Shown: one piece after another, positions 42,985-64,000 of the stretch
Position numbering within the stretch: the first letter of the stretch is position 1
Layout: each line of letters opens with the position of its first letter
DNA from: Protoeuglena noctilucae
Taxonomy: Eukaryota
Direction of reading: 5' to 3'
NCBI GenBank assembly: GCA_958009085.1
Contig: OY253672.1
Location: 558,001-622,000 of the forward strand
Length of the DNA: 64,000 nt
The notes under the pieces: model-generated
The model's database searches: none
Told to the model about the DNA's origin: nothing
The model's input: the letters and a program-made list of their open reading frames with translations, nothing else
Program-made: the position numbers and the translations under genes

Positions 42985-45900
42985 ATGCAGGGGGCGACCT
43001 TGCGCTCAAGCGGACGAGAGCTGTTTCTGACGGCCAGCGCCCGACCGAGTTCCATGGCGAAATCGCGGCGGTATTCTCGCCACTTTCATGCATGGGAACC
43101 GGACTCGGCATTTGCTGGCGCTTTCGACCTCGTTTCGCTTTTTGAGCGCACCCGCGGTCTTCTGCGTTTCGTGGGCCTTCCGAGTGGGCGAAACTACGAG
43201 CATTGGCGGAACTCGTGGGCGGCGTGATGGCAGAGGCCCTCGCTGGGCAGCAGAGGTGGGTCCTCGGGTGCAGTTCGCTCCCGTGTCCCGTGGGCGCCCT
43301 CCCCCGCGACGCAGGTTCCCTGTGGTTATTCCGTCACTGAGATTGGTTCATATGGCAAGCGCCTGTGGCTCCTCTCCCCCAGGGCGTGCCTCACGCAGCC
43401 AGAGCAGGGTGTGAAGAACGACGGGTGGGACAATGAGCACTCGGACCTCATTATACACGTCGGCGACGTCATGGAGAGCAGCTCCGGCAAGAGGTAGGTC
43501 GCCCGAGGGGCACCCCACGGTCCGTTGACTTGCGCCCCATGCTTTCTGCGTGGCCGCGGCCCTGGGCGCTCGCTGCGCGGGGCTCAGCGCACCGCGGAAC
43601 ACGTCACTATGTGTGGCATGCGTGGGGGCTTTCTCGAGGGGCGGGGGGTCCCCACCGTGCAGGCTAGGCCGATGCGCTCGGCGGGAACGTGCGGCCTCGG
43701 CGCGTTTGCTCGCTCCTGCGGCGCGGAACGCGCTGGAGGACGCCTGTTCGCACGCGCTGCGCAGGTACGTGGTGAAGGACGTGCTCGGCTCGGGGACCTT
43801 TGGGCAGGTGGTGCGATGCACGTGCGAGACGGGAGGCGAAACGGTGGCCGTCAAGGTCATCAAAAACCTCCCGGCGTACTACCAGCAGGTGCTCGTCCGT
43901 GCCGGCACTCGCCGCGCGCTCCAGGCCGCCCGGGGGCAGCCAGGCCAAATGCCGCACCGACTGCCCCTCGTGCGCAGGCTCGGATCGAGGTGGGGGTCTT
44001 GCAGCTGCTGAACCAGCGCCACGACCCTCACGACAAGCACCACGTCGTGCGGATGCTCGACTACTTCGTCCACCGGCGGCACCTCTGCATCGTCTTCGAG
44101 CTCCTTTCCGTCAACCTCTACGACCTAATTCGGCACAACCGCTTCCGCGGCCTGTCCATGAACCTCCTGCGGGTCTTCCTGCGGCAGATCCTCGCGGCCC
44201 TCGTCGTCATGCGCGACGCGTCCATCATCCACTGCGACCTCAAGCCTGAGAACGTGCTCTTGCGGTCCCTGAACTCCGGCGAGGTCAAGGTCATCGACTT
44301 CGGCTCGGCGTGCTTCGAGGGCCGCACCGTCTACTCCTACATCCAGTCCCGATTCTACCGCTCGCCCGAGGTCGTCCTCCGCCACCCCTACACGGCCGCC
44401 ATCGACGTCTGGTCGTTAGGGTGCATGGCCACGGAGCTCTTCCTGGGGCTGCCCCTCTTCCCAGGTGTGAGATGGGTGTGAGATGGACATGATTACTGTT
44501 GTTCTGGCCCATTCACTGTTCTGGTTCGATCCCCGCGGACCGCACCCGTCGCCGCTCGGCGTGCGCTCCATCTTCGCGGGTGGCGACACCGGTTGGGCTA
44601 ACCTGGGAGTCTCTGCCCTTTCGCAGGGGCGTCGGAGCACGATCTCCTGGGCCGCATCGTGGACATGCTGGGCTTCCCTCCCGACCTGGTCCTGATGGCT
44701 GCCAAGAGCACGTCCAAGTATTTCCAGCGGGGCGAGGACGGGTGGTGGAGGATGTTCACCCGGCAGGAGTTTGAGCAGCGGACGGGGCAGAAGGCGCCGC
44801 AGGGGAAGCGCTACTTCAAGCACGACAAGCTGCCCGACATCATCGCCTCCTATCCCTACCGACCGGGCCTGACGGAGGCAGGCGAGTGGTTGCCATCCGT
44901 ACCCTCGTGGGGTGTCTTCGGGCACTGGCCTGCACCCGCAGCTGCCCCCGCGCGATGTTTGCACCAACGCGCCGCCCTCTGCTCCGCCGCGCAGCTCTCG
45001 CGAAGGAGAAGGAGCAGCGGCACGCGTTCCTGGACCTCTTGCGTGGTCTGCTGGATTTGGACCCCAAGACGCGGTGGACACCTCGGCAGGCCTCCCAGCA
45101 CCCCTTCATCACCGGCCAGCCCTTCACCGCCCCCTTCACGCCCGCCCCCGACGTCCCTGCTGCCCAGCGCGGCATCCCCATCGGCGCAGTGCCAGAGCAA
45201 GCGCAGCGGCAGGACACGCATGCGGAGGCCTCCACGAGTGGATTTGCGCTCATGTCATGGCCGGGGCCGGGGATGGTCCCGCAGCATTCGCCGATCGCGG
45301 CGACCTTCCTGGAGGCGTCGCCCAACACCCAGGCCCAGGCGCTGGCCACCGTGCAGAGCGCGCTGCGGGTGCAGCAGCACGGGGCGGTGCCAGTGGGCGT
45401 GCACGGGTCGGGGCTGGCCGGGGGCGTGGCGGGTGGGCAAGGGCCAGGGGCCCACGGCGGCACGGGCCCCATATCGATCCCATCGCTGCACGACGGCGCC
45501 CTGGCCGCATCGTTGGCCATGTCGGTCCCCGTCCATGGGGGCCTGGCGGCACAGATGCACATGCAAGCGGGCCACGTGCCGATGGCGTCGTCGGGCGCCG
45601 TCGCTGCCACGCCTAACCTGGGCATGACGCCCAGCACAATGGTGAGGGCTTGCGACAGTCGTGCTGTGACATGAATGTGCTGCAGTGGCGTGTGCCTGCC
45701 CCTGTGCGGCGCTACTACTCCTCACGTCGTCCCCGGTGCCCTGCCCTGTCTCTCAGAACGCGCTGGCCATGCACGTGGCGGGTTTCGAGAACTCCCCATC
45801 CATGAGGGGCGCAGGGCCCGTCGCTTCGTCGCACATGTCGCCTGGGTCCTTCCCAGGGGGCATGGTGGTGGGGTCCTACGGCCTCACGGGCCCGCACATC

Positions 45901-46915
45901 AGTGAGGGCGCGCCGGGCAATGCGCAGATGGCCGGTCAAAGAACGCTTGGTGCTAGTCGTCTAATCCGCCTGCCTCCCGCGGCCCGCAGTGTCCCCACTC
46001 AACACGCAGGGGGCGGCTGCGCTGGCTGCAGCGGCGGCGCAGCAGGGAAACACGTCCCTGCACTTCACGCGCGTCCCACCGGCACCCGGGGTGCGTCGCG
46101 AGTCGCGCATTGAGCCCCGCATGCCCGCTCGACGCGATTGCGTCGCTGTGCCTGGCAGGGGTCGCGTCCCACCGTTCCCTCGCGCCGTCCCGCCGCAGGC
46201 CGTCGGCAGCGCGGGCGTCCCCGCCGTCTACTTCCCTGCCAACCGCGTCCCTGGGTCGGTGCCGTCCTCCGGCTTTGTAGTGTCCCAAGGCGTCCCGGTC
46301 GCCCTGGCCCCGGCCGTGATCCCCTCACGTGGCGGTGGGCTTTAGCACCGGGGAGGCGACGGCGGTGCTCCCGCCTCTGGGGGAGGGGTCGGTACCCTCT
46401 GCCCCGCGGAGCTCGGGGGTGGGCCTGGCCGCCAGCCGCGGCACGAGCAACCAGGGGACGCCCGTGGTGGCCGCCGCCATGGACACGACGCCGTCGCCGG
46501 ACCCGGGGGAGTGGAACCCCTTCTACTCCGAATCGGAGCTGCTGACGGGAGACCAGGGCGGCCAGGGTGGCGCAGCGGGGCCCATGCCGGCGCAGGTGGG
46601 TGGGGGTCGACTGGGCCGAGCGAGCCCGGCTGGCTGCTGAGAGAGGCTGACTGCTCTTGTAACTACCTGCCCCTGGGTCCTCTCTCGCAGGCGCCCGTCT
46701 CGCCGCAGTGGGCGATGGCGAGGGTCGCCCCACCGGGGGGGCCCCTCGGGTTCGCGGCGCCGAGCGGGCCTGGGTTCCCAGTCCCCTGGCACCCCGGGCC
46801 GCTCCCGCTGACGCAGAAGGGGCAGCTGTCGGCGCACATGAGCGCTGCCCAGCCGTCGCACCTGGGCCAGCCCTCGAGCACGCAGGACGGCGTGGATGCG
46901 GCGATGGAGGAGTAG
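42985..46915 (+). CDS. YAK1: DYRK-family kinase of the Yak1 subfamily (TAR1-like), with a long low-complexity C-terminus
   Basis: GVKNDGWDNEHSDLII, LGSGTFGQV, VAVKVIK, IIHCDLKPEN, IDFGSAC, YSYIQSRFYRSPE and the C-terminal PDPGEWNPFYS. The 5' exons and start codon are uncertain. Confidence 0.93.
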
Positions 46916-47739
46916 GAGCGGCCGTGGCGCGGCGCACAAGCCTCCGTGGGCGTTCGCGGGCTGTCGCCGTCTTCGAATGTCGTCTCCGTGCCGGCCATTC
47001 GTTGAATCGGAGCGCACATTGCTCGCGCTTTCCGACTGATGTCAGCCAGGGCGGACGCGCTGGCCGACGTGGGGCGCGGGGCATGTCGCTGGAGAGAAGT
47101 CGGATCGTCAGGAAGAAATGCCTCGGCACAGGTGTCCCGGCCCGCGGTTTTGACTCGACCAGCCCGAGTCAGGCCAGCTCTGTCGTGCCAACGCATCCAA
47201 GTGACGCGTCGATGTTGCATCCCCATCGAGAATGCTTGCCTCTGTTTGCATTGGGCGGATGCTCCGGTGCCCGTTGCTGACTCCTCGAGCAGGGGACCCC
47301 GAGGGACGCTCTCTAAGCCGCACTAAGCCTTGCGGACGCCTCCGCTAGCCCCTACCCCCTTCTCATTGGCCGAACGTCGCTTGCCCGGTTCCCTACACAT
47401 GGCCGCGCTCAGCGCTGGAGCCGTGGCTTGCTAGCCCAGCCCAACGAAGGCAGGCAGGCCCCCAACTAATTGCTGCGTTCCTCTTGATAATTTAGTTCTC
47501 CCGCTGCGCATCGTTTTCGCCCGTGGTCGCTGGGTGGTCGGCCTGAGGGTGCCTCCCCGTCTCTCCACCGCGGGCGCTCCTCCGGCTGTCGTGGGAGCCT
47601 GTGCACTCGAAGAGTGCATCGCGCGCCCAGCACCGGTGGGTTCGGAGGAAGATCCCTGCCACGACGGGCAGCCGAGGCCCCGTGGGGCCGTTCCCCGGCC
47701 CGTTCCACGGCGTTCGTCGCTGAGACGCATTCCTGAGGG

Positions 47740-50700
47740 ATGTCTTTGCGACTCCTCGTCTCCGCCCTGGGCTTGTCCTGGACGGGGTGGGCGATCGTCG
47801 TCGGGGTCGTGTGCAAGGGGGCCCAGGCCGCTGTGCAGTGGCGCGCCGGGGCCCCGCAGCCCCACCATGAGGTCCGGTCGATGGACGTAAATCAGGGGTT
47901 GTACACGGGGGGCGTGGACGCCGAGGGCCGGCCCCACGGGCTGGGCGTCCTGCGGGCAGGCGCTGCGGTCTATGAGGGAGGTGAGCATGGCGGGCCCCCG
48001 CCGCGAGATGGCGCCTTCGGGGGACCTTGCCGAGCGCCCCCGCGATGCCTGGCGTTCCGATCCTGCGATCGCGCGCCGCAGCCCGCCGCAGCGCAGCCGC
48101 GAGACGCTGCGGGCGCCCGTCACTCGCAGAATTCGAGCACGGCCTGCGGCAGGGACGGGGGCGCCTCCAGGAGGCATTCGAGGCCACCGTGTACTCGGGG
48201 GACTGGAACGGAGACGTGCGTTCGGGTTTCGGCTGCTGGCACGTGCGATCGGAGGCGGCCGGGTTCGGAGGGCACTGCGGGCTGTGGGGCTTCGACCTGC
48301 CGCAGGGCTGCGGCACGCGGTGGAACGAGCTCGAGAGCACGACCGGGAGCGAAGTCGCTAACGTGAGGCCACACTGTTGCGCGCATCCGCACGCCGGCGC
48401 GCGCGCGCATGTCGGCGAGCGGAGAGCATGGTCTCTGCTGCGCAGTGGTCCGCCAACGAGGCCACGCCGCTGACGGACGCGGTCGAGACGGACGTATGCT
48501 GGAAGTTTGTGGAGCTCGCGAGGGAGGCAGAAGCGGAGGCGCTGCGCGTCGCCGAGTCTGCGACGTCCCTGGAAGCCGCGTGGAGGTGCGTGGCGCTCCG
48601 CGACGCGCCGGGGCCCTCCGCCGGCGCCGCGTACGCGTTTTGATGCCATCTCGCGTTGGACGAGCTGGGCGGACCGGTTCGACTCCCGCCCTCGCGCGCA
48701 GGGAGTGGGACGGGACGGACGACAACGGCCCCGCATGCCTGGCGCCCGCCCACGACTGCGCGCAGCCGCTCGCCGTGCGCGCGCTGCGGTTCGCGATCCG
48801 CGTCCTCAGCGCGGTGGCCGACGGGACGGCTGCCGTGACGTGGCAGAGCGTCGTGGTGGTCCTGGTGCTGGTGACGTCGGTCGTCCTGCCCATCCTGGCC
48901 TCGCAACCCAAGCGGAAGCGCGGGAAGGGTGCAGCCGGGAAGGACAAGCTCAAGCGCAAGATTTCCACGCTTAGGGACGCTTTCGCGGACGCCCTCAGGA
49001 GCCTGCGGACCGTCCCATGGTGCGTCCCACCTGGCCGTCCCTCGTTGCACGGCGCGCCCTGCTCCCTGCCGCCCCTGCCGCCGCCCGGGTCTCGCGCATC
49101 GCGCTCGTTTCCTGCAGCGAATTCACTGTCGCGTCTCCGCGCAGGTCCCCCGCGGGCATTGCGCACCGCGCGCTGTCGTCTGGGCAGGGCGTCCTGGCGG
49201 CCGTGGTCCCGAGCCTCTGCGCGGCAGCTAGCGCATCGGACGGCTCCACCATCGACTTCAGCGTCCCGGACAAGGATGTCGACGAGTTCTGCGCGCCCGT
49301 CCCGACCACGGGCATCCCGGGGCTGAAGCCCAGGCATCGGTGCGTGTTGGGTCGCGACGCTGCGCGCGTCTCTTGCGCATGGCAACCTCACCCCAACCGG
49401 TGTGCACGGCGTGCCCCCGAGCCGCTATCACCGTTGGCGCGTCCCCGCCCTTGGTTCGCAGGCACGACGCGGCGCAGCGGAAGGCGAACGGCGCCGTGCC
49501 GGCAGCGGGGCAGGCGGCACAGGAGGGTCGCCTGGATGGCGCATCAACGGGGGCCAAGGCCAGCTCGGGGGGCGCAGCCGCGAGGGACAGGGATCGCGCC
49601 GAGACGCATGCCGACGCGGAGCCCTGGGCCACGCCTCGCAACTCGGAGTCTGACGTGAGGGGCCCGTTTCTTACGCCACCTCCTGCCGCCCAGCGGCCTC
49701 CACGATTTCGACCTGACGCCCGCGTCGTGCGCCTTCCGTTCGTGCAGGGCCCGGTAGCCGCCGCTTCGGCAGACCCGCGGCGCTCGGCGGGGGCGGGGCC
49801 CTCTCCAGGCACGGAGGCGGCAGCCGGGGTCGGCGCAGGGGACGAGGAGCGGGGGCGCCGCAAGCGCCGGCGGGCTCGCAAGGGCCGCGGTCCCCACTCC
49901 CGATCGACCACGTCTTACGGGTCCCTCGACTTCCCCGGCACGCCGCCCGTGGATGGCAATGAGGACGATGAGGACGACGACGACGACGGCGGGGTGGCCG
50001 AGATGGTGCCCGCTGCACCGGCACGCACCACGGTGCCGCCCGGTGAGGCCGCTGCACGGGTGGCGAGCGCATCATTTCCTGGGCCGGGAGGCACGAGCTG
50101 GGTGGTGCATGCCGAGTTGCGTTTGTGACACCCGTCCCTGCCCTCTGGTCCCCGCAGTGCCCGGGCTCTCCCTAAGCCGCGTCAGCGCCCTCTGCGCGGA
50201 GGTCCACGCGGCGCCGGCCCCCGTGCCGCCTCCCCCGGGCCGCTGCGACGGCCGACGGCACCGCCCGACCCCCTCGGGTGGCACGGCGTCGACGTCGCTC
50301 ATGGGAGACCTCACGGAGGTGCGGGGCAGCGCGGCGCCCTGTTCACAACCTGTGTAATTCTATAGCAGACCCGTCGCGACTCGCTGGGTTCACGCACTGC
50401 CCCATGGGATGGGACGGGGTCCACTTGGCACGACATGCCATGTGTGACACCACCCTCTCTCCTCCCTCGCCCGCAGAGGTCGCGCGTGGCGTCGTGCTGC
50501 CGGGGACAGTCGCCGGACATGGCATCTCCTCGGGAGGCCCTCTCCCCGGACGCCTTCTCCCCAGCGCTCCTCAGCCCGACGGCCGCGCTTGGCCGCCCCG
50601 CGCCCGCACCGTACGTCTACGCCCCGGGCCACGTGTCCCACGGCCGGACGCTCAGCATGCCCGGCGCCGCGGCCTTCCCCGGGGCCTTCTTCAGCCCCCG

Positions 50701-52756
50701 GGGGGTGATCCCCACACACTCGCGCCAGCCCAGCGCGTCCTCTGCTGTGTGGTCCCGCGGCGCGTGGGCCGGGTACAGCCCTCGCCCGGCGCCGTGTCTC
50801 GCCGCGAGCGTCTACCCTTATGTGGTCACCGCGGACGAGGCGCCGTCCATCTTCGGGGCGCCGCCGGCCTCGTGCCCCTACCCGCCCAGGGCGGGGTGGT
50901 GTACCCCACGCCCGTTATCACGGCGGCCTTCGCGCTCACGGCGCGCCCGGCCCCGCCGCCCCGGCCCCCGCCGCGCAAGAGCTCGGGGGGCGTTGTGGGG
51001 GTGTCGCCGCGGCAGCCGCCCCCGCCCCCTCCGCGGTCTCCGTGCTCCCCGCCGCCCTCTTCCCGCGTGTCCGTCCACTCCTCCACCAGCCAGCTGCCCT
51101 CGCGCGCCCACAGCCGCACGCCCTCGGGCCTCCCGCCCGGGGCGCGCACCGCCTCGGACGCCGCCCACCTCCACCCGGGCCTGGCAATGCTGGAGGGACC
51201 CCACATGCTCGGCCCGGCGCCCCTCGGCCCGGTGGACCTGCTCGAGAAAGACTGGAGCGCGTTCGCGGTGCTGCCGCAGGACGCGGACGGCTCCCGCACG
51301 CCCCGCCGCGTGCCCCGCCGCTCGCTGGCCGGGGTCGCGCTGCCGCCCGGCGTGGGCGTGGACCAGCCCCTGACGATCGAGTTCACTGACTCAGAGACCG
51401 GGGCGGAGTCGGGGGAGGAGCGGGACGCGTGCGAGCGCGGCGTGGGGCCCTCGGGCGGAGGGGCGTGGCGCGTGGCGCGGCGGGTGGGCGGCGCGGGCCT
51501 CCTGGGCCCGCAGCTGGAGCCCCTGGTGTCGATCCAGGGCCGCATCGCGGCGAGCTCGACGAGGGAAGTCGCGCCGCGGCTGGAGGACGAGGAGGGCAGC
51601 GGGGCAGCGGCGGGCGGGGCGGACCGTGCGGCGGGCAGCCAGGCGACGCCGTCCACGGGGCACTACAGCTGCCGAGGGGTGGACGACACGAGCAGCGACG
51701 CGCGCAGCCAGGCGGCGCTGGAGGGGTCCGAGCCCGCCATGGAGGACGGAGGAGGGTCGCTGCAGGGGTCGGCCAGCGTGTGCCAGGTGGGGGGCTTGGC
51801 GGTGGGCTTGGCGCCTATTGTAAGCGTCAGTTGTAAGCGTCTCCTGTCTCAGTCTCCAAACATGTGCGACGAGATGTTACGATGTGATGCTACTTTTAGC
51901 GACTGCAGGCCGACTCGGATGCGGAGGCGGATGCGTTAGACGGGCGGCAGGCGGAGGCTGGGGCGCTCAACCGGTCTCTCATCGCGCTCTTCAGCCCCCC
52001 TGGGACCATGCACGGGGCTGAGGAGGACCGGGTCTTCAGCGACGCGGACCTGCTCAGGGCGCTGCTCGCACGCAGGTGACGACTGCGACGATGAAACTAG
52101 TCACAAGCCGATCACGCTTCTGTCGCACACGCGAGCATGTCGTGTCGGCCCAGCCCTCGGCACCCCTCTCACCACTCCACCCCGCTCCCCTCGCCCGCAG
52201 CAACCCCAGCGACGCCACCTCGTCCGCGTCGGAGCTCCTGCGCACGGCCGCCACCGCGCACCTCCTCTACGTCTCAAACGGGTCCGACCCCGCGTCCCCA
52301 CCACCCACGGCCCGGCACGCGGCGCGCGGACCGACGCCCGCGCCCGCCCCGCCCCCGCCGCCGCCCCCCGGGTCCGCCCGGGGCCCCCGCCACATGCGCA
52401 ACGTGAGCACCATCAGCCACACGAGCCTCGACGCGGGCGCCCTGGCCCAGGCGGTGCGGGCCACGGCAGATGGGGTCCTTGCGGTCCCCGGCCACGCCTC
52501 GAGCATGCCGGCAGCCACGTCCCCGCCCCCGTCGCCCGTGCACCCGTCGGTGCTGCCGGCCGTGCCCCCGCCGCCGCCCCCCCGCAAGGGCAGCGGCCAC
52601 CTCCCCGCCTTCTTCAGCCTCCCCGCCACCCCCGCCGACGGCGTCGTATTCCTTCCCTTCCCCACGGAGCCCCTGCCCCCTCCGCCGCCCCGGCGCGCCG
52701 GCTGGGTTGACCGCCACGCGCCCTCTCTCAGCAGCGACGGCGTGCCGCTGTTATGA
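47740..52756 (+). CDS. MORN-repeat protein with an N-terminal hydrophobic leader, a central TM helix and a long disordered Pro/Ser-rich tail
   Basis: YTGGVDAEGRPHGLG, YEG|EFEHGLRQGRG and YSGDWNGDVRSGFG are MORN repeats. VVVVLVLVTSVVLPILA followed by KRKRGK is the TM segment. Downstream exons join in phase, but a single-gene model is an inference. Confidence 0.65.
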
Positions 52757-53536
52757 GACGATGCTGTCGGCCTCCGGCCTCCAACCGTGATCACACTGTT
52801 GGAGGCTGGCGACTCGACTCTCCCACCCCTCGTGCCCCTTTGCTGTTTGTGGAGGAGTCGTGCTCCCTTGTTGCCGGGCCTTGGGACGCCAGAGAATCTT
52901 TGCTTGTACCGCCAGTAGCGCCTGCTGCCTGCTGCCTGCTGCATCCCCAGTCATTCGACCCAGCTGCGCGTAGCCCCTCGGTTACCCTTCCGGGCCCACG
53001 GCGCCCCACCTGCCTAACCCCAAGAGTTGCCGTGCGGGCCGCCCTTGCCGGCTGCAGGCCCCGGGGCGCCGCGTTATGCGTAGCTCGGTGAGATCCTAAG
53101 CCCGCTTGCCACCCACGTCGCCGAGGGTCCTCACCCTCCCTCAGTCAGCGCCTGGGCTTGGCAAGCGCTCCGCTTGTGACAGTGCGGGAGCCGACGCTCC
53201 TAGCCTCGTAGCATTGGATTCGCAAAAGCCCCATTGAACGGGCGCTATGAGACTGACAGGCCCGCGCTCAGCAGACCGAAACGTAAGCTCTGGCAGAGCG
53301 CGACGCATCCGCGGCGACTCACGCGTGCCGCCCAACGCAACAACCCCGGACCTAGTAAATGAGACGGACTGCAACTCGGCACTGCGACTCGGCAGTGTCC
53401 ATGTCCATGAGGCAGCAGAGGGTACAGAGAGCGAACAGGGCACACCCAAGTGTCCTCATGGACTCTTCAATGCCCTCGAAAGTCGTCTCCGCTGTTGCGT
53501 CGTCCCTTAAACTTTTGATAACTGCATCGCAGTTCC

Positions 53537-56500
53537 TCACGACTGGCGCAGCTTGGTGGGGTCGGTGCATGGCCCCACGTCCATAATGACCTCCCGATGG
53601 TGGCTCCACACGAGCCGGATGGCCTCGGGTGTCCCGATGCCGGCGTTGCGGGGGTCGCCGCCCGGGCCGAACCAATGGTTCTGGGGGGCACCCGTGGTGC
53701 GGGCGCTGCGGGGGGCGAGAGGCGCAGGTGCTTGGGGTGGGGTGCTCGCAGTGACAAAGGCGTGACGCTTGCAATGAGCAGGGGTGCAGCGAGACGAGGC
53801 AAGAGCGTAATAGGCGGAGCACAAACAGGCGGATTATAGACGGGCGGATCACTGGCAGCGTGATATGGCCAGTGAGGCTGAGCGTGGCGCCGCGCTCCGT
53901 CCACCGCCTGCCCCCCGCCCGCTCGCTCACCGGATCCCCGCGTAGGTGGTTCCGTTGACGGTGTTGGCGACGATGTGGTTGATGAACTCCATGTCCCTGG
54001 ACACGATGGCGGCCGTCAGGTGGTTGGTCATCCGCTCGCAGCACTCGAGGACCCGGGGCGCGTCACGATCGCCGTACTGCGGGGCGAGACCGGAACGTGC
54101 TACTGGAGACCTATATGTGCTGGCGTCATTGTCGAACACTGGCGTCGAACACTGGTGTCGGAACCCAGCACGCGTGTACTATCAGGTGCGGTGGGCAGCC
54201 CAGGTCCACAACACGCCTGCAAGCGCCCATCCACGCCAGCTCCACACACACCTCAGTGACCACTTGGAAAGGCCCGAAGAGCTCCGTGGTGCAGAGCTCG
54301 AAGGTGGCCTTGTCGCGGAGCATGGTGTCCAGCGGCACGAAGACAGCGGTGGGCTCCACGGCTCCGTAGCACTCCGGGATGGTGTGGCCCTGCAGGGGCT
54401 TGCCCCCGAAGAGCACCTTCGCGCCCGGGAGGTCCGCGAGGGCCTTCACGTGCTTGAGGATGCGGTCGGTGGTCCACGTCAGCACCGGGCCCACCGTCAG
54501 GTCGTCCAGCGAACGCTGCGAGAGGGGCGAATGGGTGAGTTGTGATGCGCACGCTTGTGATACGCATGGTGGACTGGCTGTGTTTGGATGTGCGATGGGC
54601 GCGTGGTAGAAAGGGGCCCTGGCTAGGGGGTGGAGTGAACTGGGTGTCACAGCCGGGTGGCGGTGGATAGTACTAATGTGAATGTACTATTGTGGGGTGG
54701 TTGATACAATGCATTGTTCACCTTGGCCGCCAGCGTCCTGACCTCGTCCAGGATGCCCGCCTTGACCCAGTTGGAGTGCGCGAACAGGATGCTCTGCGCT
54801 GAGCACTTCTGACCGATGGATGCGTAGGCGTCCTGGTCGCACTGCCATGCCACGTAACGCATGTCTGCGGGTGAACAGGATAGACGGGTGGTGCTTGCAT
54901 GATGCAAGGCGAAGCATCGAGTGCAAAGCGCTGTCACGTTCCTTGTTAACAGTGAGGGATGAGGCAAGATGCGCAGTGGATAGGACAGACGTGTACGCAC
55001 GCAGAGCTCAGTGCTGGGGCAGTGCAGGTGCACAGGGCAGACGCACACGCACGCAGGGCCCAGCGCTGGGAGCCACGACGCCCATCCCAGTATCGTTTCA
55101 CTGCATCCAACCCCTACACATGAGCGCCCAGTGTCCCCCGCCGCACTCACTCATCCCAGTCTCGTCTCATGCACCCCACCCCACCCCTTAGCATTCAGTG
55201 TCCACCACCGCCCTCACCGCTGACGTCGGGACCCAGGATCTTCCAGTCGAACCCCGCGTCCTCCGAAAAGACCTTGCCGCCCAGCACCTGGCACAGACGC
55301 TCCGCCACCCTGCGTGCGTTGGACGGTTATAACCACTGTGGAACTTGCAGGGCCGCTAGCACCTCTTATTCTCCATGAACGTTGTCCTCAACCTCACTGC
55401 ATTTTATACCACCCACGAACAAAACCCACGAACAAAACCCCTTGTCGGCCCCCTCACCTCTGGCTGCCCGTGAAGAGCGTCGACCGCGCCTTCCCCTCCG
55501 TCAGCACCCGCTCCACGCTGGGCCCCGTGCCGTGCAGGTAGTCGAGGTCCTCGGCCGGCATCCCGCAGTGGATGGCCAGGTGGAGGAACTCCTCGAAGAC
55601 GGCAGACACGCGGTGGTCGACGTGCACGGTGGGGCGGTTGCCCATGTACAGCGCGCCCATCACCTGCGGTGGGGTGGGGGGATGAGGGTAGAGGGAGTGG
55701 GGTGAGGACGGGGAGAGTGGGAATGCGGATGCATGTTGCAGGGGTGGTTGCTCATGTACAGCGCACCCATGACCTAAGAGGCGGGGTCATGGTGCATGGT
55801 CACGAACGCAAAGGGTGGGGTGGTCGCGCAAGTTGCGGCCGGCTGCATGGTTGGCCATCTAATGCATGTTTATGTACATTTGCTATTACAGACGCCGTCG
55901 CTCGCCTGGAGTGCGGGAATCTCGAGGGGGAAGTTGAAGGGGGTGATGAGGCCGACGCCCCCGAAGGGGAACCGGTGGCCGTGCGACATCTGGCCCCAGT
56001 GGTCGCCGGGGACGCCGAAGCTGCGCGCCAGGAAGCGCACGTTGTCCCCGGCGAAGTTCTCCAAGAACTTTCTGCGGGAGACGCAAACGGCGGGGCAGTC
56101 TGCGACTGCAACTTCGCGCCCAGTGCTTTCCCAACACACGCGCCTGCACCCAGCCCGCTGCAGCTCGCACCTGGTCACGACCACCTCTCCCAGGCACTGC
56201 GCCCGGCTCTTGGGCACGACGCGAGCGATGAGGTCGGCGAAGAAACCCTCCACCTCCGGACGCCGCATCTGGGCCGCCAGCTTTGCCGTCACGTCGCCGT
56301 AGAGCAGGTATCGCTCCGGGTTCTTGAAAGGGTTGTGCAGCCCGCTGCGAAACGAGATAAGAAAGAAAATGTAACGTTCCATGAAGCTTTGAGAGCGTCC
56401 GGGGCTGCTAAATGAACCGGGCGAGTCGTGATAACTAGCACGCACCTCTTCGGCACGCCCGCGAGGTTCTTGATGAAGGAGTCGAGCTCCGGGCCCTTGG

Positions 56501-57024
56501 GATCGGGGACTTGGACTAACACGTGCCTGCGATCGAGGACCGGGCGCTGCTCGGACGCAGGCGCGGCGCGGGTACGTGCGTTTGCGTGGCCACGCCGAGG
56601 CAGCCGCGGGAGGGCCTCACCCGCGCATCGGATCCAGCACGTCTTTGTATTCCTTGGAGTCTTGCCACTTGCCGCTCACTGCGCGCATCCAGGGCGACGG
56701 AGATCGCGCGCCCCCGCCTAACCATCACGAGACGGGGCTCGGGCAGGACGGTCGCTGCCGGCGGTCACGGTACCGCGCACGCGCGATCGCTCGCCACGTG
56801 GCCATGAAGTGGCGAGGATGGACTGCTCTAGGCCGCGTTATATGGCCCGGGGGGACGCGAGGAGCTCGCGGAGGGGGAAACGCATCAATGAGCTCACCCA
56901 GGTTTTGGAGGCGATGGGGGTTCGCGTCACCCATGCTCCCCGGTTCGCACGTCGCCCATGATGCAATCAGACGTGCATGCGCGACGCGCCTTGCCCGCAG
57001 GGCGCGCCCTGCCGTCGCGAGCAT
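53537..57024 (-). CDS. P5CDH: Mitochondrial delta-1-pyrroline-5-carboxylate dehydrogenase (ALDH12), about 11 exons
   Basis: GLHNPFKNPERYLLYGD, RKFLENFAGDNVRFLARSF, ITPFNFPLEIPALQ|VMGALYMGN, TLFTGS, EDAGFDWK, GQKCSAQS (catalytic Cys), ELFGPFQ and TTGAPQNHWFGP. Confidence 0.97.
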
Positions 57025-57657
57025 TGCTGCCGTGTGTCGGCAGCGTCGACGGGCGAAGTACACAGGGAGTACGCTGCAGGTCTAAAACAACGCTTCTTTC
57101 CACCTCTGGGCCAGCGCAGGGGGGCCGAGGCCGATGAGCGAGTCGGTCAGTCCGCCAGTCAGACTGGAGAGGTCGCGAGACCGATTGACTGCTCCCCGCC
57201 ATCCGGGCGCTGGACCTGACTAGGGGGTGGGTGCCCTGTGCACAGGACCTTTCTTTTCGACCCGCTAGTCGTCGCCGCATCTAACAGCGCGCAGCTGCCC
57301 GGGGGAGCACACGTGGCGCTCTCCGTGACCTTTGCGCACTTCCAGCTGCATCACACTGCAGCGTTGACTGGCCTGGCGTCACGTTGGCCACAGGTACCTT
57401 TGGAGGGAGACCTCGGTGGCATTGCTGAGCTTGCGAAAGGGGCGCACCATCCAGCGCGTGGCCAGCCAGACACAATAGGATACAATGGACAGCCGCGTAT
57501 TGCGGGAGAGGGCATCGGATTTGCCTGCTCGCGTCCGGGCACTTGAACATGTTTTCACTACAAAGTTGCGAGCCGCGGCGCGCCCAAGTCACCCGCAGGA
57601 GCCCAGGCGCGGTCCGGAGACTGGTAACGCCAGGGACTTTCCGGGCGGGTCCCCGCC

Positions 57658-60600
57658 ATGTCCATCTTCTTCCAGAATGTGCTCGACGTGCAGCACCCGC
57701 GCGCCCTGGCCCTCCTGGCGGGGAAGGGGGGCCCAGGGATCGTCGCGGTCGCCCTCCCGGGCGCAAGCGTGGCCCTCTATACACTGGTGACGAGCTCCAG
57801 CGCACGCCCCGCCCGCCTCGCGTGCTCTTGGATCTCAAATCCCGCCATGCCGATCGGCATGGACGCCTCGCAGCGCCTGCGGAGCGCCCGCGCTGCTTCC
57901 TTTTCGGGCCCAGCACCTCATGTATGCCCCATCGCATCTTTCCGCAGGACTGCCAGCCGCTGCTGCCCGGAAAGGAGGCCCCCATCACCAACACGACCAT
58001 GCAGCCTTGCGCGGCGCTGGCCTGGTGCCCCCGTGGGAGGCTCCTCGCCGTCGCCTGGTCCGACGGCGGGGTCGCGCTGTGGTCTGACGGCGACCGGCGG
58101 CAGCAGTGAGTCCGCAGGCCCCGCCGGACGCTCCCAAGTGCCGCCCCATTGCACACGCCCATTGTTGCTCCCCACCACCCTTTTCTGAGACCTGACGTGC
58201 CTCTGTCGCGCTCGCTCGCAGCGAGGAGCGCAAGGGCCACTCGGCCCGCATCACGGCCCTGAAGTGGACGGCGGACGGTGAGCGCCTGGTGACGGGCGAT
58301 GCGGCAGGGACGCTCACGGTGTGGGAGGCAGAGGGCCTCCTGCGGCCCGTGATACGGGCGCAGTACAAGGAGCCGGGCACCGTCATCGACCGCATCGTCG
58401 TCGGCGCGCCCTCCTCTGCCCCCGTCGAGGTAAGTCGTTGATGGATGGGTGGGAGCGTGACGGGCGGTGTAGCAGTGCAGGGCTGGTCTGACCGTCACAT
58501 GGCTCGAACATAACACGTGGCCCTTAACAAGTGGCTTAGAACACAAGGTCCATGCTGGCAATGATGACACGGCATTTGTCTGATGGGTTAGAATCTTAGG
58601 TCTCAGGTCATGTCTCCCTCTGTCTCTGCCGCCTTTGCAGTTTCAGGAGGACGGTGCCGGGTCGGACACCCCCCCCAAGGCCCTGGCCATCTACACGGCC
58701 TTCAGTGCGGACGACGGCGACACGCGCGTGTTCGCTGCCAACGACCAGGGCAACCGCATGCGGCTGTTCAAGTGCCGGGGGCAGGTCAAGGCGCTGCACT
58801 GGCACGAGAGGTGAGGATGCGTGTTGATGGAGGTGCCGACGCTAAGGTAACGAGGCGTGAAGCCATCGCATGCATGTCGCTTGGCGACAAGGCGTGAGGC
58901 CATCTCGTGTATTCCCATTATACAATGGCGTTTGCTCGACACGCTCGGCTGGGTGCAACCCACCGCACCGTCTCTTAGCAGCGCATGATGCATCGCTGCC
59001 GCAGACAATCCCACGTCACCACACATCTCCGCATCCCTCTTCCCCACCCCGCCACCCGCAGCCGCCAGCAGGCGATCGTGGTGGACGCCACCGGCAGCCT
59101 CGCCATCTGGACCGCGGGCGTGGATGGCTGGGAGTGCGCCTCCTCGGTGCAGATCCCCGGCGTCGCTGCGCTGCAGGTGGGCGCGCGATACGCCTTGTGT
59201 GCCTGGTCCGAGCGTGTCCTGCCTGGGCCGGCCAGTGTCCGTTGTACCGGCGTCACTCCGTCGTGGTTGTCATCACCTGCGCTGTTGACCTATGCTGCCA
59301 TGGTCCCTCAGCTGTCGTGCCTCCCACTGCCGAGGCCCTTCAGCCGCTCTCAGCCGCCTTTCTCCACTCCCTGCCTCCCTCCCCTGCCCCGCAGGCTGGC
59401 GACCCCGTCACCTTCTCGTGCGTGTGGTGCGGCGCCTCCACTCTAGCCATCGCCACCCCCGACGAGGCCGTGCTGCGTCTCTACCAAGCAGACACGCAGG
59501 ACAGCTACAAGCTGGAGTTGCCCGACGTCGTGCATGTGCCGGGGATGGTGACCTACCTGACGTCAGTCTCGTCGGACCCGGACGGGGGGGTCATTGCCGT
59601 GGGCACCAGCACGGCGCACGTGGTCACGTGGGCTTGCCCCGCGCAGCCGGCGGCGGAGGTGGGCGAGGACCACGAGGCGCACGACCCGGCCATGGGGTGG
59701 CAGCTGCAGGTGCGGAGGAGGGGGGGGTTGTTGTTGGGGGGTAGGGGGGTGAGGGGGGGTGGGGGGGGGGGGTGGTAGAGCGGGTGGGGGGGGTATGGGG
59801 GGAGGGGTGGTGGTGGTGGGGATGCGAGGATGGTGGTGGCAGCTGCAGGTGCGGAGGGGGGGGGGGGGGGGGGTAGTATGGGGGGATGGTGGTGGTAGTG
59901 CAGGTGCGGGGATGGGGTGGCAGCTGCAGGTGAAGGGGGGGTGGGGGGTGTTGTGTGGGTGCGGGGTGGCAGCTGCAGGTGAGGGGTTAGGGGGGTGGGG
60001 GGGTGGGGATGGTTGCAGGTGCTATGGCAGGTGCCCGATTGCAGCTGCGGGTGCAGGATGTTAAGTGCGTCGTGCGTTCGCTTCGGCTCCCTTCGACCTC
60101 AACATCTCCCATGTCTTCCACTCCTGTCGCAGGGCGCTCATCAGTTCGACGAGAGGGTGGAGGACATCGTGGTGGGCCCCGGTGGGCAGTGCCTGGTGGC
60201 CGACTGCACCTCGAGCGTGACGGTGCTGAGGAGCGCGCCCCCCGTGTGCAGCATGGGGGCGGGGCTGGCCTGCGTGCAGATTTCCGCCACGGAGGTAAGG
60301 GGCGGTGTGTGGTGTGGTCGTGGGGTGACGGTTTGGCATAGGGTGCGTGAGTTGGAGTACCGCTCCCACTCCCACCATTGCCACACCACCAGTGTTACCA
60401 CTCCCACCCCCACCACCCAATACCACCACTCCCGTTCCCACTCACACTGCTACCCTCACTTCCCTCACCAGCACACCCACCACCCTCACCCCCACCACCA
60501 CCCTCTCACCAGCCCCTCACCACCCCCACCCCCCCCTCACCACCACCCCCCCAGCTGTCGGTGGACGTGGACCGCGGGGGCAACGGCATGCAGGTGGAGA

Positions 60601-63600
60601 CGGGCATGCAGATCCACGGCGTGAGTCACACCAAGGACAGGGTGCTCGTGTGGAGCGGGGCAGAGGCACAGCTGTACCTGCTCACCTCATCGGGGCCGGA
60701 GCTGGCGGTGAGGGGCCATGCTGTGATGTGTGTGTGAGGGGCGATGGCGATGCTGTGTGTGACGGGCGCTGCTGGGCGTGAGGGGCCATGCTGCGATGCT
60801 GGGCGTGAGATGCGATGCAGTGTTTGAGATGTGATGCTAGGCGTGAGAGGCTGTGATGTGCGTGAGGGTCGATGATGGGATGCTGGGCGTGAGGGGAAAT
60901 GGCGATGCTGTGTGTGAGGGGCAATGCTGGGCGCGACAGGTGATGGTGTGTGTGAGACGGTGGCATGTCCTGTCTGTTGTTACAGACGAGTTGGTTTGAG
61001 TTAGGTACTCTTCAGCTAGCGTGAGACGAGTCAACTCAGGTTGACAACGCCACCCCTTTACTACACCCTTCACCCCACTCTCCCTCATCCCACTCACCCC
61101 ACTCCCCCCCCCTCCCCCCCCCCCAGGCCTCCTTCCCCCGCGCCGCGACCTCCATGGCCCTGGGCCCGTCTGCCATCTTCGAATGCTCCCCCTTGGGCGT
61201 CAACCTCCTCGACAACTCGGGACAGTCTCGCATGACCCTCCCCTTTGACCGCGTCCACGGTCCCCCCGTGTGCCTGGATCTAAAGGCAGACCTGTTAGCT
61301 ATCGTCACACGCGAGGGGTTCGTCGATTTGTACCGAGTGGGGCTGCAGGGCGAGCCGCCTGTGTCGTACGGTCCGCCCCGGCGCCTGGCGCTGCCCGGGG
61401 GCCAGCACGTGGGACTAGTCACCTCTGTCCGCATCAATGCGAACGGCACCATGCTCAGTTTGATCCCCAACGAGAGGCCTGGGCCTGAGGGGTCGGGGCG
61501 TGTGTACGTCTATGATCTGGAGGCCGATGCGTTGGGTGTGCATGAGATGCCTGGCCGGGTGGCCGTGTCGCATGCGTGGGATCTGGTCGATCCGCGGCTG
61601 CTGGGCGTCGAGACGGAGAGGCTGGGGGGGGGAGACAAGGACGAGGAGAGAGGGGTGAGGGGTTGTGAAGGGTGTGTTGGATGTGGGTGGGGCGGGGTGG
61701 ATGGGGTGCTGGGTGTGGGTGGGGTGGGGTGTTGGTGTTGAGTGGTGTATCCGGGTGCTACGTATGTTGGTTGCTGCATGCATGGATGCTGCATGCACAA
61801 ACTCCCGTCCCACCTCACCCCCCTACCCTCCACCCCTCACCACCCCCCCACCCCCAGGTGACCCTGCTCTTCGCCAGCAAAGGCGACGTCCATCACTTCG
61901 ACTCCTCCTCTCTAGGACCCCACACCGCGCTGCTGGGACTGAGGGCACCCGATCTGCACGTCTTCCGCCGACCCAAGGCCGAGCGAGGCCGGCGCACGGG
62001 CCGGGAGTCCCGGGCCGACGCGAACGGCGCGCCGCAGATATCCAACGATTTCGACGACGGATTCGAACGCGCGACCTCCGGGGCGGGCGGGGGAGGGTCT
62101 CGGCCGGCGACCGGGCGCGGGGTGTCGCAGGCGGCATCGCTGCAGCGGTCGCAGTCGCGGGCACTGAGGGGGATCAGCCAGAGGGGTGAGTGTTGGTGTG
62201 TGTGTGTGGGTGTGGGTGTGATGGTGTGATTGGGTCAGCCAGAGGGGTGAGTGGGATGTGGGTCGGTGGTGGTGTGCGGGGTAAGAGGAAGAGGGGTGAG
62301 TGGGGGTGTGACAGTGGTGGTGTGGCTGGGGCAGGCAGAGGGATATGACGAGACTGGAACCTCACCCCCATCACCTCTCCCTCTCTCCCTCTCTCGCTCA
62401 CCCCCTCCCCCTCCCCTCATCCCACTCCCCTCTCACCTCACCCCAACTCTCTCCTCCGCCACCCCCAGACATGGGCGTCCGCCTTCACACTCACCCCTAT
62501 CATCCCTCACCCCACTCCTCACCTCTCACCCCACTATCCTCTCTCACCTCACTCCCCCTCTCCTCTGCACCACCCCCAGACATGGGCGTTCGCCTGCACG
62601 ACGGCCTGGTCCAGCCCCGCATCACCAAGGCCCGCATGTCTCCCTTCCAGGGACTGGAGGACGACTCCCCCGCCATGGTGGCAGCCCTGGTCGGGTTCAG
62701 CTACCACACCGGTGAGGGGGTGGCAGGGGCAGGGGCACAGGTCAGCTGAGCAGTGTGGTTATGAGGGCATGGTGGGTGAGTAAGTGGGGTTCAGCTACCA
62801 CACCGGTGAGGGGGTAGCAGGGGCACAGCCCTCACCAAACCGCCTGCCTTTCAGTGGAACGACACGCACCCACCCTTCACCCGTCCCCACATCATACCCC
62901 ATGCCCTCTCTCCCCCCCTCTCCCCCTCTCTCCCCCACCTGCTCGCCACCCTATGTATGAAAACACACCCACCCTTCCCACGTCTCCACATCACCTCATC
63001 AACCTGCTCCCCCCCCTGCAACACGACACGCACCCACCCACCCTTCCCACATCCCCACACCATACCCCTCCCCCCCCTCCCCTCCAGCTGCCTGCCACCC
63101 TACGTATGACCACACACGCACGCACGCACCCCTCCTGCTCCCCCCCTTCATTCCCCCATCACAACCCCCCCTCACCCCTCCCTCCCCCCAGCCGCGGGCA
63201 ACCGTGAGGAGGCCTACAAGGTCGCCAAGAGCATTGCGGACCCTCGGGTGTGGGAGAGCCTGGCGTTGATGTGCATTAAGACGCGGAGACTGGACGTGGC
63301 GGAGCACTGCCTGAGCAACATGGGGCACGTGCAGGGGGCGAGGGCACTGAGGGAGGCCAAGGTGGGGGTTCGTGAATGCTGCTGGGCACACGCTCTGTGC
63401 CAGCCCCACCCACCCTCTCCACCAATCCCACCCTCTCCAACTTTTCACCCTGCCAGCCCCACCCTCTCCACCCTCACCAACCACACCCTCTCCACCCCAC
63501 CCTCTCTCCACCCCACCCCACCCTTCTCACACACCCACCCCACCCTCTCCACCCTTTCTACCAACCCCACCCCACCCTCTCTTTACCCCAACCCTCCCCT

Positions 63601-64000
63601 CCAACCCCACACCCATCCCACCCTCGCCACCCACCCCATCCCCTCCACTCCATCCCACCCCACCCCACCCTCTCCACCCCTCCCCTCCCCTCTCCCACAC
63701 CCCCACCCCACACCCCCCAACCCCCCCTTCAGAACGAGGACGACGTCAACGTCCGCGTGGCTCTGGTGGCGGTGCATTTGGGCTTAATCGAGGACGCAGA
63801 GGCCTTACTGACTCAGGCGGGGGAGTGGTCCAAGCTGATTGAGCTGTATGCGGCTGCGGGGGAGTGGGGCAAGGCGATTGCAGTGGCGGAGGGCAAAGAG
63901 CGCATGCGGCTCAAGAGCACGCACTTTGCGCACGCCAGGCATCTGGAGGCGCTGGGGCAGATCGATGCCGCCATGGGGTGAGGGATGGGTGGGTCTGTGG
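57658..64000 (+). CDS. IFT140: Intraflagellar transport protein 140 (WD40 + TPR), 5' part; continues beyond the window
   Basis: WD40 repeats ([42 protein letters not shown]), [47 protein letters not shown] and [13 protein letters not shown]. Confidence 0.93.
59691..60060 (+). repeat. Intronic G-rich repeat built from copies of the exon-end/donor GTGGCAGCTGCAG|GTG
   Basis: Real junction at 59709/59710. Copies at ~59830-59857, 59912-59936 and 59963-59986, with degenerate copies at ~59898 and 60013-60055. Confidence 0.9.
60705..60965 (+). repeat. Intronic minisatellite of roughly ten degenerate GTGAG(G/A)GG...ATGCTG units starting at the donor site
   Basis: Read directly. The first unit is the real donor at 60708. 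Confidence 0.85.
62855..63732 (+). repeat. C/A-rich intronic minisatellites (ACGCACCCACCCTTC-type in intron 62712-63191; CACCCTCTCCACC-type in intron 63362-63732)
   Basis: Multiple imperfect copies seen directly, e.g. at 62858 and 63021, and at 63411, 63460, 63484, 63541 and 63666. Confidence 0.85.

Follow-up and report, generated by a model that had tools for sequence, protein, structure and literature searches.

Copies of splice junctions within the introns of adjacent IFT140 and P5CDH genes in Protoeuglena noctilucae: probable local duplications spanning exon-intron boundaries

Are splice junctions preferred targets of duplication within their own introns, or are junction copies simply the duplications that a gene can tolerate? 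The question is raised by a 64,000-nucleotide (nt) stretch of the Protoeuglena noctilucae genome (assembly GCA_958009085.1, contig OY253672.1, forward-strand positions 558,001 to 622,000; hereafter the window, with positions counted from its first nucleotide), which holds two adjacent genes on opposite strands, IFT140 and P5CDH. A first-pass annotation had listed seven junctions of these genes as repeated in diverged form inside the neighboring intron, and had proposed that duplication is targeted to, or selectively retained at, splice junctions. All seven copies are present in the sequence, and a further, older acceptor copy occurs in IFT140 intron 11. We consider that the copies are probably minisatellites of the “mirage” type, i.e. 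local tandem duplications whose unit spans an exon-intron boundary and which survive hidden in the intron.

The window is GC-rich nuclear DNA (63-75%), and of the words sampled from it, roughly one fifth to one third also occur in marine metatranscriptome runs and 98-99% in runs of a single labeled organism. The two genes were modeled as follows.

53537..57024, minus strand: P5CDH gene (ALDH12-type aldehyde dehydrogenase); 11 exons, spliced model of 541 amino acids (aa) plus stop.
57658..63977, plus strand: 5' part of the IFT140 gene; 13 exons and 12 complete introns, modeled by tblastn with the homologue P0001 and GT..AG boundaries; the gene is cut by the window end.

The spliced IFT140 frame runs for 937 aa without a stop, and from residue 109 to residue 937 it follows P0001 collinearly (residues 1-813; 850 alignment columns at 53% identity). 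P0001 is a homologue of 1382 aa which carries the IFT140 Pfam set. The model itself matches Pfam PF23385, the second beta-propeller of IFT140, with E = 4.6e-13. P0001 is encoded on a metagenome contig of 75% GC as a single uninterrupted frame of 1382 codons (L001 1206-5351); the IFT140 gene of this relative is therefore intronless, whereas here it has at least 13 exons. The closest match of the P5CDH model is a protein of Pedinophyceae sp. YPF-701 (P0003), aligned without gaps over 519 aa at 71% identity (81% in one exon), and the source is accordingly a green alga with a pedinophyte as its nearest named relative. One P5CDH exon matches PDB 6d97, “Aldehyde dehydrogenase 12” (E = 5.7e-29), and several database relatives carry the name 1-pyrroline-5-carboxylate dehydrogenase; going beyond these names, we take ALDH12 to be the same enzyme as P5CDH. 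Wherever copies exist, splicing in both gene models runs from the upstream-most donor to the downstream-most acceptor. The junctions that yield intact proteins agree to within 1 nt with those of the first-pass annotation and are called authentic below.

The junction copies are located as follows.

55083..55217, minus strand: P5CDH intron 7 donor tandem repeat; the 67-nt unit 1 begins exactly at donor GT 55217.
55631..55822, minus strand: P5CDH intron 5 acceptor copy; authentic exon start 55663, copy start 55773, AG 55775-55774.
59692..60056, plus strand: IFT140 intron 6 donor array; authentic GT 59710, copies with GT at 59849, 59930 and 59979.
60701..60968, plus strand: IFT140 intron 8 donor array; authentic GT 60708, copies at 60778 and 60862; units of 19-27 and about 70 nt.
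62171..62302, plus strand: IFT140 intron 10 donor copies; authentic GT 62186, copy GT 62247; repeat families D13 and D15.
62397..62599, plus strand: IFT140 intron 10 acceptor tandem duplication; copy AG 62467-62468, authentic exon start 62580.
62674..62834, plus strand: IFT140 intron 11 donor copy; authentic GT 62712, copy GT 62806; 22-38 exon nt; repeat family D12.
63030..63218, plus strand: IFT140 intron 11 acceptor, older copy; copy AG 63086-63087, authentic exon start 63192; repeat families D4 and D14.

The copies in IFT140 intron 6 (59710-60132) reproduce the final 18-23 nt of exon 6 together with GTG, with an exact 17-mer at 59849 and degenerate copies at 59904 and 60040-60056; this array is defined by a Tandem Repeats Finder (TRF) period of 82 at 59782-59948, by repeat families D7 and D9 and by anchored alignments. 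In intron 8 (60708-61126), array units at 60778 and 60862 repeat GCTGG(G)CG/GTGAGGGGCCATGCTG, where the slash marks the exon-intron boundary (TRF at 60708-60926; blastn of 60701-60866 against 60771-60956; families D5, D6 and D8). At the donor of intron 10 (62186-62579), an exact 19-mer recurs at 62235-62253, found twice against 0.01 expected. Of the two copies of this donor in the first-pass annotation, that at 62247 is thus exact, and that near 62296 is present in weaker form, with about 7 exon nt in common and an equal likeness to the intron 9 donor. The acceptor of the same intron is duplicated with a TRF period of 111 (1.8 copies, 81% matches; 64 of 78 nt identical; family D11), and its copy contains 20 exon-like nt, in frame and open. 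The intron 11 (62712-63191) donor copy at 62784-62825 has 40/42 nt identical. The older acceptor copy in this intron (63030-63114) retains its AG with 61/85 nt identical and a weakly matching exon-like part, and belongs to a family of 149-164 nt period at 62859-63121.

In P5CDH, the acceptor copy of intron 5 lies 110 nt from the original and carries 33 exon-like nt (60/82 identical; family D17, 35 nt at 89%). This intron (55664-55905, minus strand) is of the GC-AG class with donor GCGAGC, a boundary backed by the gapless alignment to the pedinophyte protein. In intron 7 (54865-55217), unit 2 begins with GTGAG at 55150 and is devoid of exon sequence (TRF period 67, 2.0 copies, 77% matches; 47/62 identical). 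Elsewhere, in IFT140 introns 6, 8, 10 (both ends) and 11 and in P5CDH intron 5, the copies include 7 to 38 exon nt. Copies are 72-95% identical to their originals and lie 61-269 nt from them in the same intron; those at 59849, 62247 and 62806 match the authentic donor fully over at least positions -12 to +7. Repetition is head-to-tail, as seen in the TRF periods of 67, 82 and 111 nt and in the array at 60708-60926, and the offset alignments agree, with the intron 11 donor excepted. A further short repeat stands at 39934-39958 (plus strand) in a third gene, where a 13-nt unit, GTGAGAAAGGGGT, occurs 1.9 times and begins exactly at a probable donor GT; the exon before it resembles membrane-protein sequence, and the intron is predicted solely from the open frame.

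To compare junctions with introns at large, we used 50-nt probes (25 exon and 25 intron nt) from the 54 junctions of 27 introns in the window, comprising 12 of IFT140, 10 of P5CDH and 5 RNA-supported introns of a gene at 47-50 kb, and counted a score of at least 20 as a match. Seven of the 54 probes match their own intron, against one match in 1404 comparisons with other introns (Fisher P = 5e-10). The junction copies exceed chance and are specific to the intron in which they reside.

Introns which carry the copies are also longer. Clear junction copies occur in six introns, of 242-480 nt (median 406.5), and the other 21 have a median of 161 nt (Mann-Whitney P = 3e-4), which supports the earlier suggestion of intron expansion; after subtraction of the copy offsets, the echo-bearing introns would measure about 130-280 nt (hand arithmetic). 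A closer relative offers a view of the same positions. Its protein P0002, 77% identical in exon 9 and translated from an open reading frame that reads through genomic DNA, contains non-homologous, in-frame insertions at residues 80-138 and 190-244, which coincide exactly in position with IFT140 introns 7 and 8. The insertions span 59 and 55 residues (~177 and ~165 nt) versus 260 and 419 nt for introns 7 and 8 here, and a lineage-specific expansion of intron 8 by its array would fit these lengths. The P0002 peptides GWHL and VSFLRPG resemble its exon ends and are too short to be judged as junction copies.

Local repetition is concentrated in one part of the window. Self-comparison of the 64 kb yields 29 local direct-repeat alignments (offset 10-600 nt, at least 24 nt), of which 28 fall within 55631-63730; TRF returns 14 rows (score at least 50) in the first 54 kb versus 75 rows (threshold 30) in the last 10 kb, and the five RNA-supported introns of the neighboring gene are short (83-149 nt) and ordinary. 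Since the repeats are mostly confined to 55631-63730, they characterize only some introns, above all IFT140 introns 6-12. These introns (59710-63732) are long and repeat-rich, with 5' halves of 41% G and 3' halves of 49% C. Their GGTGAG-type and CTCACC-type motifs are loosely complementary, and the two-armed composition is faint in IFT140 introns 1-5 and in the other introns checked in the window.

The mirage reading would account for these observations as follows. Some introns of this GC-rich marine green alga, mainly IFT140 introns 6-12, may be prone to local duplication, probably by replication slippage or unequal exchange, which would land anywhere in or around them. Duplications restricted to an exon would alter the protein and be lost. 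Those within the intron, or straddling a junction, would spare the mRNA while the outermost site, i.e. the upstream-most donor or downstream-most acceptor, stays in use. The extra junction copy inside the intron would then decay by point substitutions, with intron growth as the net effect. With introns of 100-480 nt and units of 50-165 nt, many of the surviving duplications must include a junction. The outer-site gene models, open and collinear with homologues, support this reading, and we infer from it the mutational mechanism, the neutrality of the copies and the silence of the inner sites.

Targeting can be separated from tolerance by asking how often positions other than junctions are copied. 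Segments of 50 nt were taken at 5-nt steps across the 27 introns with 100 nt of flanking exon, and a segment was scored as copied when it matched within the same intron with a score of at least 20. Without filtering, copies were found for 318 of 939 interior segments (34%), 43 of 356 that straddle a junction (12%) and 3 of 572 that are exon only (0.5%). Because the interior matches are partly low-complexity, the test was rerun under a dinucleotide-entropy filter. At an entropy of at least 3.2, interior segments were copied in 59/582 cases, junction segments in 28/308 and exon-only segments in 3/530 (junction versus interior, Fisher P = 0.72); at 3.4 or above the counts were 18/425, 15/236 and 3/419 (P = 0.26). 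Complexity-matched junction segments are thus copied no more often than interior ones and do not support the proposal of targeting; within this small sample junctions are no more commonly duplicated than other intron positions, the very outcome which the first-pass annotation had set as counting against its proposal. Junction copies also sit in introns whose interiors are filled with repeats (IFT140 introns 6, 8, 10 and 11, P5CDH intron 7), with P5CDH intron 5 as the exception. The companion proposal of selective retention holds in a trivial sense only: a duplication that bears exon sequence is harmless to the mRNA only if the junction is included, which is why every copy either spans the splice site or begins at it.

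A placement model leads to the same result. Units of 52-164 nt were placed uniformly on the observed intron lengths and kept if they were intron-only or straddled one junction. With the present lengths of the 8 repeat-bearing introns the expected share of straddlers is 0.40; it is 0.55 for the 22 introns of both genes, and 0.64 if those introns measured 200 nt before growth. Among the repeat families whose unit is 50 nt or longer, 10-12 by hand grouping, about 6-8 include a junction (binomial P = 0.05-0.15 versus 0.39), a share compatible with the model. As placement alone predicts that 40-64% of tolerated duplications of 50-165 nt straddle a junction, junction targeting is not needed, and a new mechanism is not required.

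Several points weigh against this reading. The two genes supply a small sample of about 8 independent events, and overlapping segments are not independent of one another. In the 8 repeat-bearing introns under the strictest filter, junction segments are copied in 15 of 63 cases versus 18 of 144 for interior segments, about a two-fold difference, and there is room for a modest junction bias. Arrays that begin exactly at GTGAG without exon sequence (55150, 60862 and 39934) would be rare under random placement. The exon part makes up less than half of the unit in all six clear straddlers, which has a probability of about 0.02 under uniform placement (hand arithmetic). The two copies at the intron 11 donor are parted by an unrelated spacer and do not form a clean tandem unit. 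Finally, all 13 copies retain their splice signals, with GT in 10/10 donor copies and AG in 3/3 acceptor copies.

Some of these points would be expected if duplication were truly junction-biased at the DNA level, which we regard as unlikely, albeit the best placed of the alternatives. The G-rich and C-rich arms contain further instances of the splice consensus (G/GTGAGGGG at donors; at acceptors a C-rich tract followed by CAG), which could act as microhomology for slippage or unequal exchange, so that arrays would be seeded at splice sites and introns would grow inward from both ends. The three arrays that start at GTGAG, one of them in the third gene, are consistent with such seeding. In IFT140 introns 6-12, GTGAG occurs 12 times in the 5' halves versus 5.2 +/- 2.0 after shuffling (0 of 200 shuffles reach 12), and CTSAC 20 times in the 3' halves versus 12.8 +/- 3.1 (2 of 200); both splice sites of introns 7-12 are bordered by repeat arrays; and tandem repeats gather near intron-exon junctions in two green algae, as stated in the accessible part of PMC3887541. 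However, the motif excess consists largely of the echo copies themselves and is therefore not independent evidence. Junction segments are not enriched overall, and copies with 18-38 exon nt break in unrelated exon sequence rather than at the consensus.

A more far-reaching version, to which we give a slightly smaller chance still, is that these introns form a class in which old copies of the intron's two ends make up most of the sequence. Seeding by the donor consensus would then have produced the G-rich, GTGAG-studded 5' arm, and seeding by the branch, pyrimidine and AG elements the C-rich, CTCAC-studded 3' arm, such that splice-site sequence drives intron growth and the inner sites tune expression through unproductive splicing.

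It is quite doubtful that the copies have been selected as working splice sites, either as decoys which yield transcripts for nonsense-mediated decay (NMD) or as alternative sites. The signals retained in all 13 copies would favour this, as would the donor core (positions -3 to +6), identical at 78 of 90 positions; this identity is partly an artefact because outer positions fall outside the duplication breakpoints. Several copies equal or better the authentic site, and some stand nearer the local consensus, e.g. GTGAGG at 59979 versus the authentic GTGCGG. All but one of the copy offsets are not multiples of three: use of any of the 9 IFT140 donor copies would lead to a stop 9-22 codons past the authentic junction, as would suit coupling to NMD, and use of the P5CDH copies would lead to early stops. 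Only the intron 10 acceptor copy stays open, and it is the clearest candidate for an alternative site. Its use would retain 62469-62579 (+111 nt) and add 37 proline- and serine-rich residues to IFT140, but homologues lack the insert. Among the joints listed from RNA contigs (15 of 68), those with clean GT..AG ends all belong to the gene at 47-54 kb, and none in IFT140 or P5CDH is canonical; the joints listed for this region, 53964>54333 and 54356>55223 among them, end non-canonically and have sides of 24 nt. These two, at 90% likeness, were disregarded. A contig of run X1 (61126-61585, from its base 84) probably joins IFT140 exon 8 to exon 9. The copies also differ in age, decay like neutral sequence across their range of identities, and are confined to repeat-prone introns.

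Two further explanations are highly improbable. The introns could be copies of a mobile introner and the echoes its target-site duplications: the organism is marine, a setting in which introners are common according to the accessible text of PMC9860276, the introns have two loosely complementary arms, and DNA depth is 2-4 times higher over their low-complexity parts; but likeness between the 27 introns amounts to six short C-rich stretches (34-73 nt, 77-85% identity), the copies lie close to the original within one intron rather than at opposite ends, and the arms are 72-85% complementary over 16-34 nt only. Near-identical, intron-filling copies, as an introner origin would leave, were not found among the 27 introns. 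The same weak inverted matches led us to reject hairpin introns with complementary arms as a candidate. Equally improbable is that the copies are assembly errors in low-complexity, repeat-rich introns. The alignment of contigs did pass over the repeats at 62183-62229, 62368-62449 and 63622-63718, and there is a single 1-nt difference at 59834; but run X6 has a contig that matches 44001-62367 and 62450-62933 with no letter changed and 3 gaps, run X2 of another study has one that agrees throughout 60624-60942, both contain the same repeat structure, and the copies bear distinct substitutions, unlike collapsed or expanded repeats. X6 may be the assembled strain, and its agreement is therefore not fully independent; the X2 contig spans one array only. 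The junction copies do not look like an assembly artefact.

Two observations concern the ends of the gene models. The last P5CDH exon (53537-53705, minus strand) overlaps the end of RNA contigs of a convergent gene (47249-53705, plus strand), and the 3' ends of the two genes appear to overlap. In IFT140 exon 13 (63817-63880, plus strand), a 25-nt stretch occurs again 39 nt downstream at 84% identity, in frame and in a TPR-like region.

As local boundary-spanning duplications, the junction copies may be compared with several known systems. The first-pass annotation had regarded them as a feature not described systematically. This does not stand, since the accessible parts of earlier papers already describe boundary-spanning repeats in the amphioxus “mirages” (PMC3087553) and in intron 7 of the human F7 gene (PMC1557585). 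Internal tandem duplication has also been linked to intron gain and change, as in Rogers' AGGT model and in internal gene duplications (PMC2891723; PMC2812944), and repeats at exon-intron boundaries in human segmental duplications alter gene structure (PMC2812944), insofar as the available text of these sources goes. The duplications described here resemble Rogers' model in that local duplication supplies extra splice sites and intronic material. Unlike in that model as presented there, existing junctions are copied into their own intron, with no new intron and no exon repeats at opposite ends. Birth of whole introns by AGGT duplication was rejected as a candidate, as a whole-intron search with the junction probes gave matches only near their own junction side.

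Within the green lineage, the tandem repeats of Chlamydomonas reinhardtii and Volvox carteri reach their highest density in introns, where they cluster near intron-exon junctions, as given in the accessible part of PMC3887541. The likeness extends to a GC-rich genome and to intronic tandem repeats biased toward intron ends. The study differs in that, in this part, it treats units of 1-50 nt inside introns and does not report units which carry exon sequence. We found no exon-containing junction repeats in green algae in the literature searched. In the available text of a preprint on pedinophyte genomes (10.1101/2021.10.04.463119), “intron” appears only in reference to intron-lacking chloroplast genomes, with nothing on nuclear introns.

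In human F7 intron 7, a 37-bp minisatellite or variable number tandem repeat has a first unit which spans the boundary of exon 7 and intron 7, and experiments described in the accessible part of PMC1557585 show that the upstream-most of the identical donors is chosen and those downstream are silent. The IFT140 arrays have a similar layout, in which an authentic donor is followed by identical or near-identical donor sites (59849, 62247 and 62806) and the upstream-most would give the correct mRNA, as judged here from open reading frames and homologues. The algal units are longer and more diverged, and acceptors are copied too. Arrays of inner sites equal to or stronger than the authentic one provide natural material on the choice of outermost sites by the green-alga spliceosome, and since the inner sites look as good as the authentic ones they are strong traps for gene predictors.

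The closest parallel is found in amphioxus, in which mirages are minisatellite-like tandem duplications of 5' and 3' exon-intron boundaries in genes such as Adh3, troponin C, the globins BflGb6 and BflGb9, and PGBD5. In the accessible text of these papers (PMC3087553; PMC3902484), the units measure 10-160 nt, many contain AG or GT, splicing is undisturbed, and mirages are proposed to occur in cephalochordates generally and to offer a way of forming new introns. Boundary-spanning tandem units at the 5' or 3' end, lengths from tens of nt to about 160 nt, GT or AG often retained, and several affected genes per organism are features shared with the repeats of this alga, and the open outer-site models predict that the normal mRNA would be unaffected here. 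The two differ in host, in that the copies in the alga are mostly more diverged and one is not a clean tandem, and in that the algal introns are rich in repeats and have a two-armed composition throughout. Amphioxus mirages have been shown to vary in length and to leave splicing undisturbed; the algal copies are described here from their sequence. Junction-spanning minisatellites, described in amphioxus and in one human gene, are thereby extended to a marine green alga, at an unusually high density of at least 8 junctions in two adjacent genes, and the sequence provides direct evidence of an approximately two-fold lengthening of introns by local duplication in this lineage.

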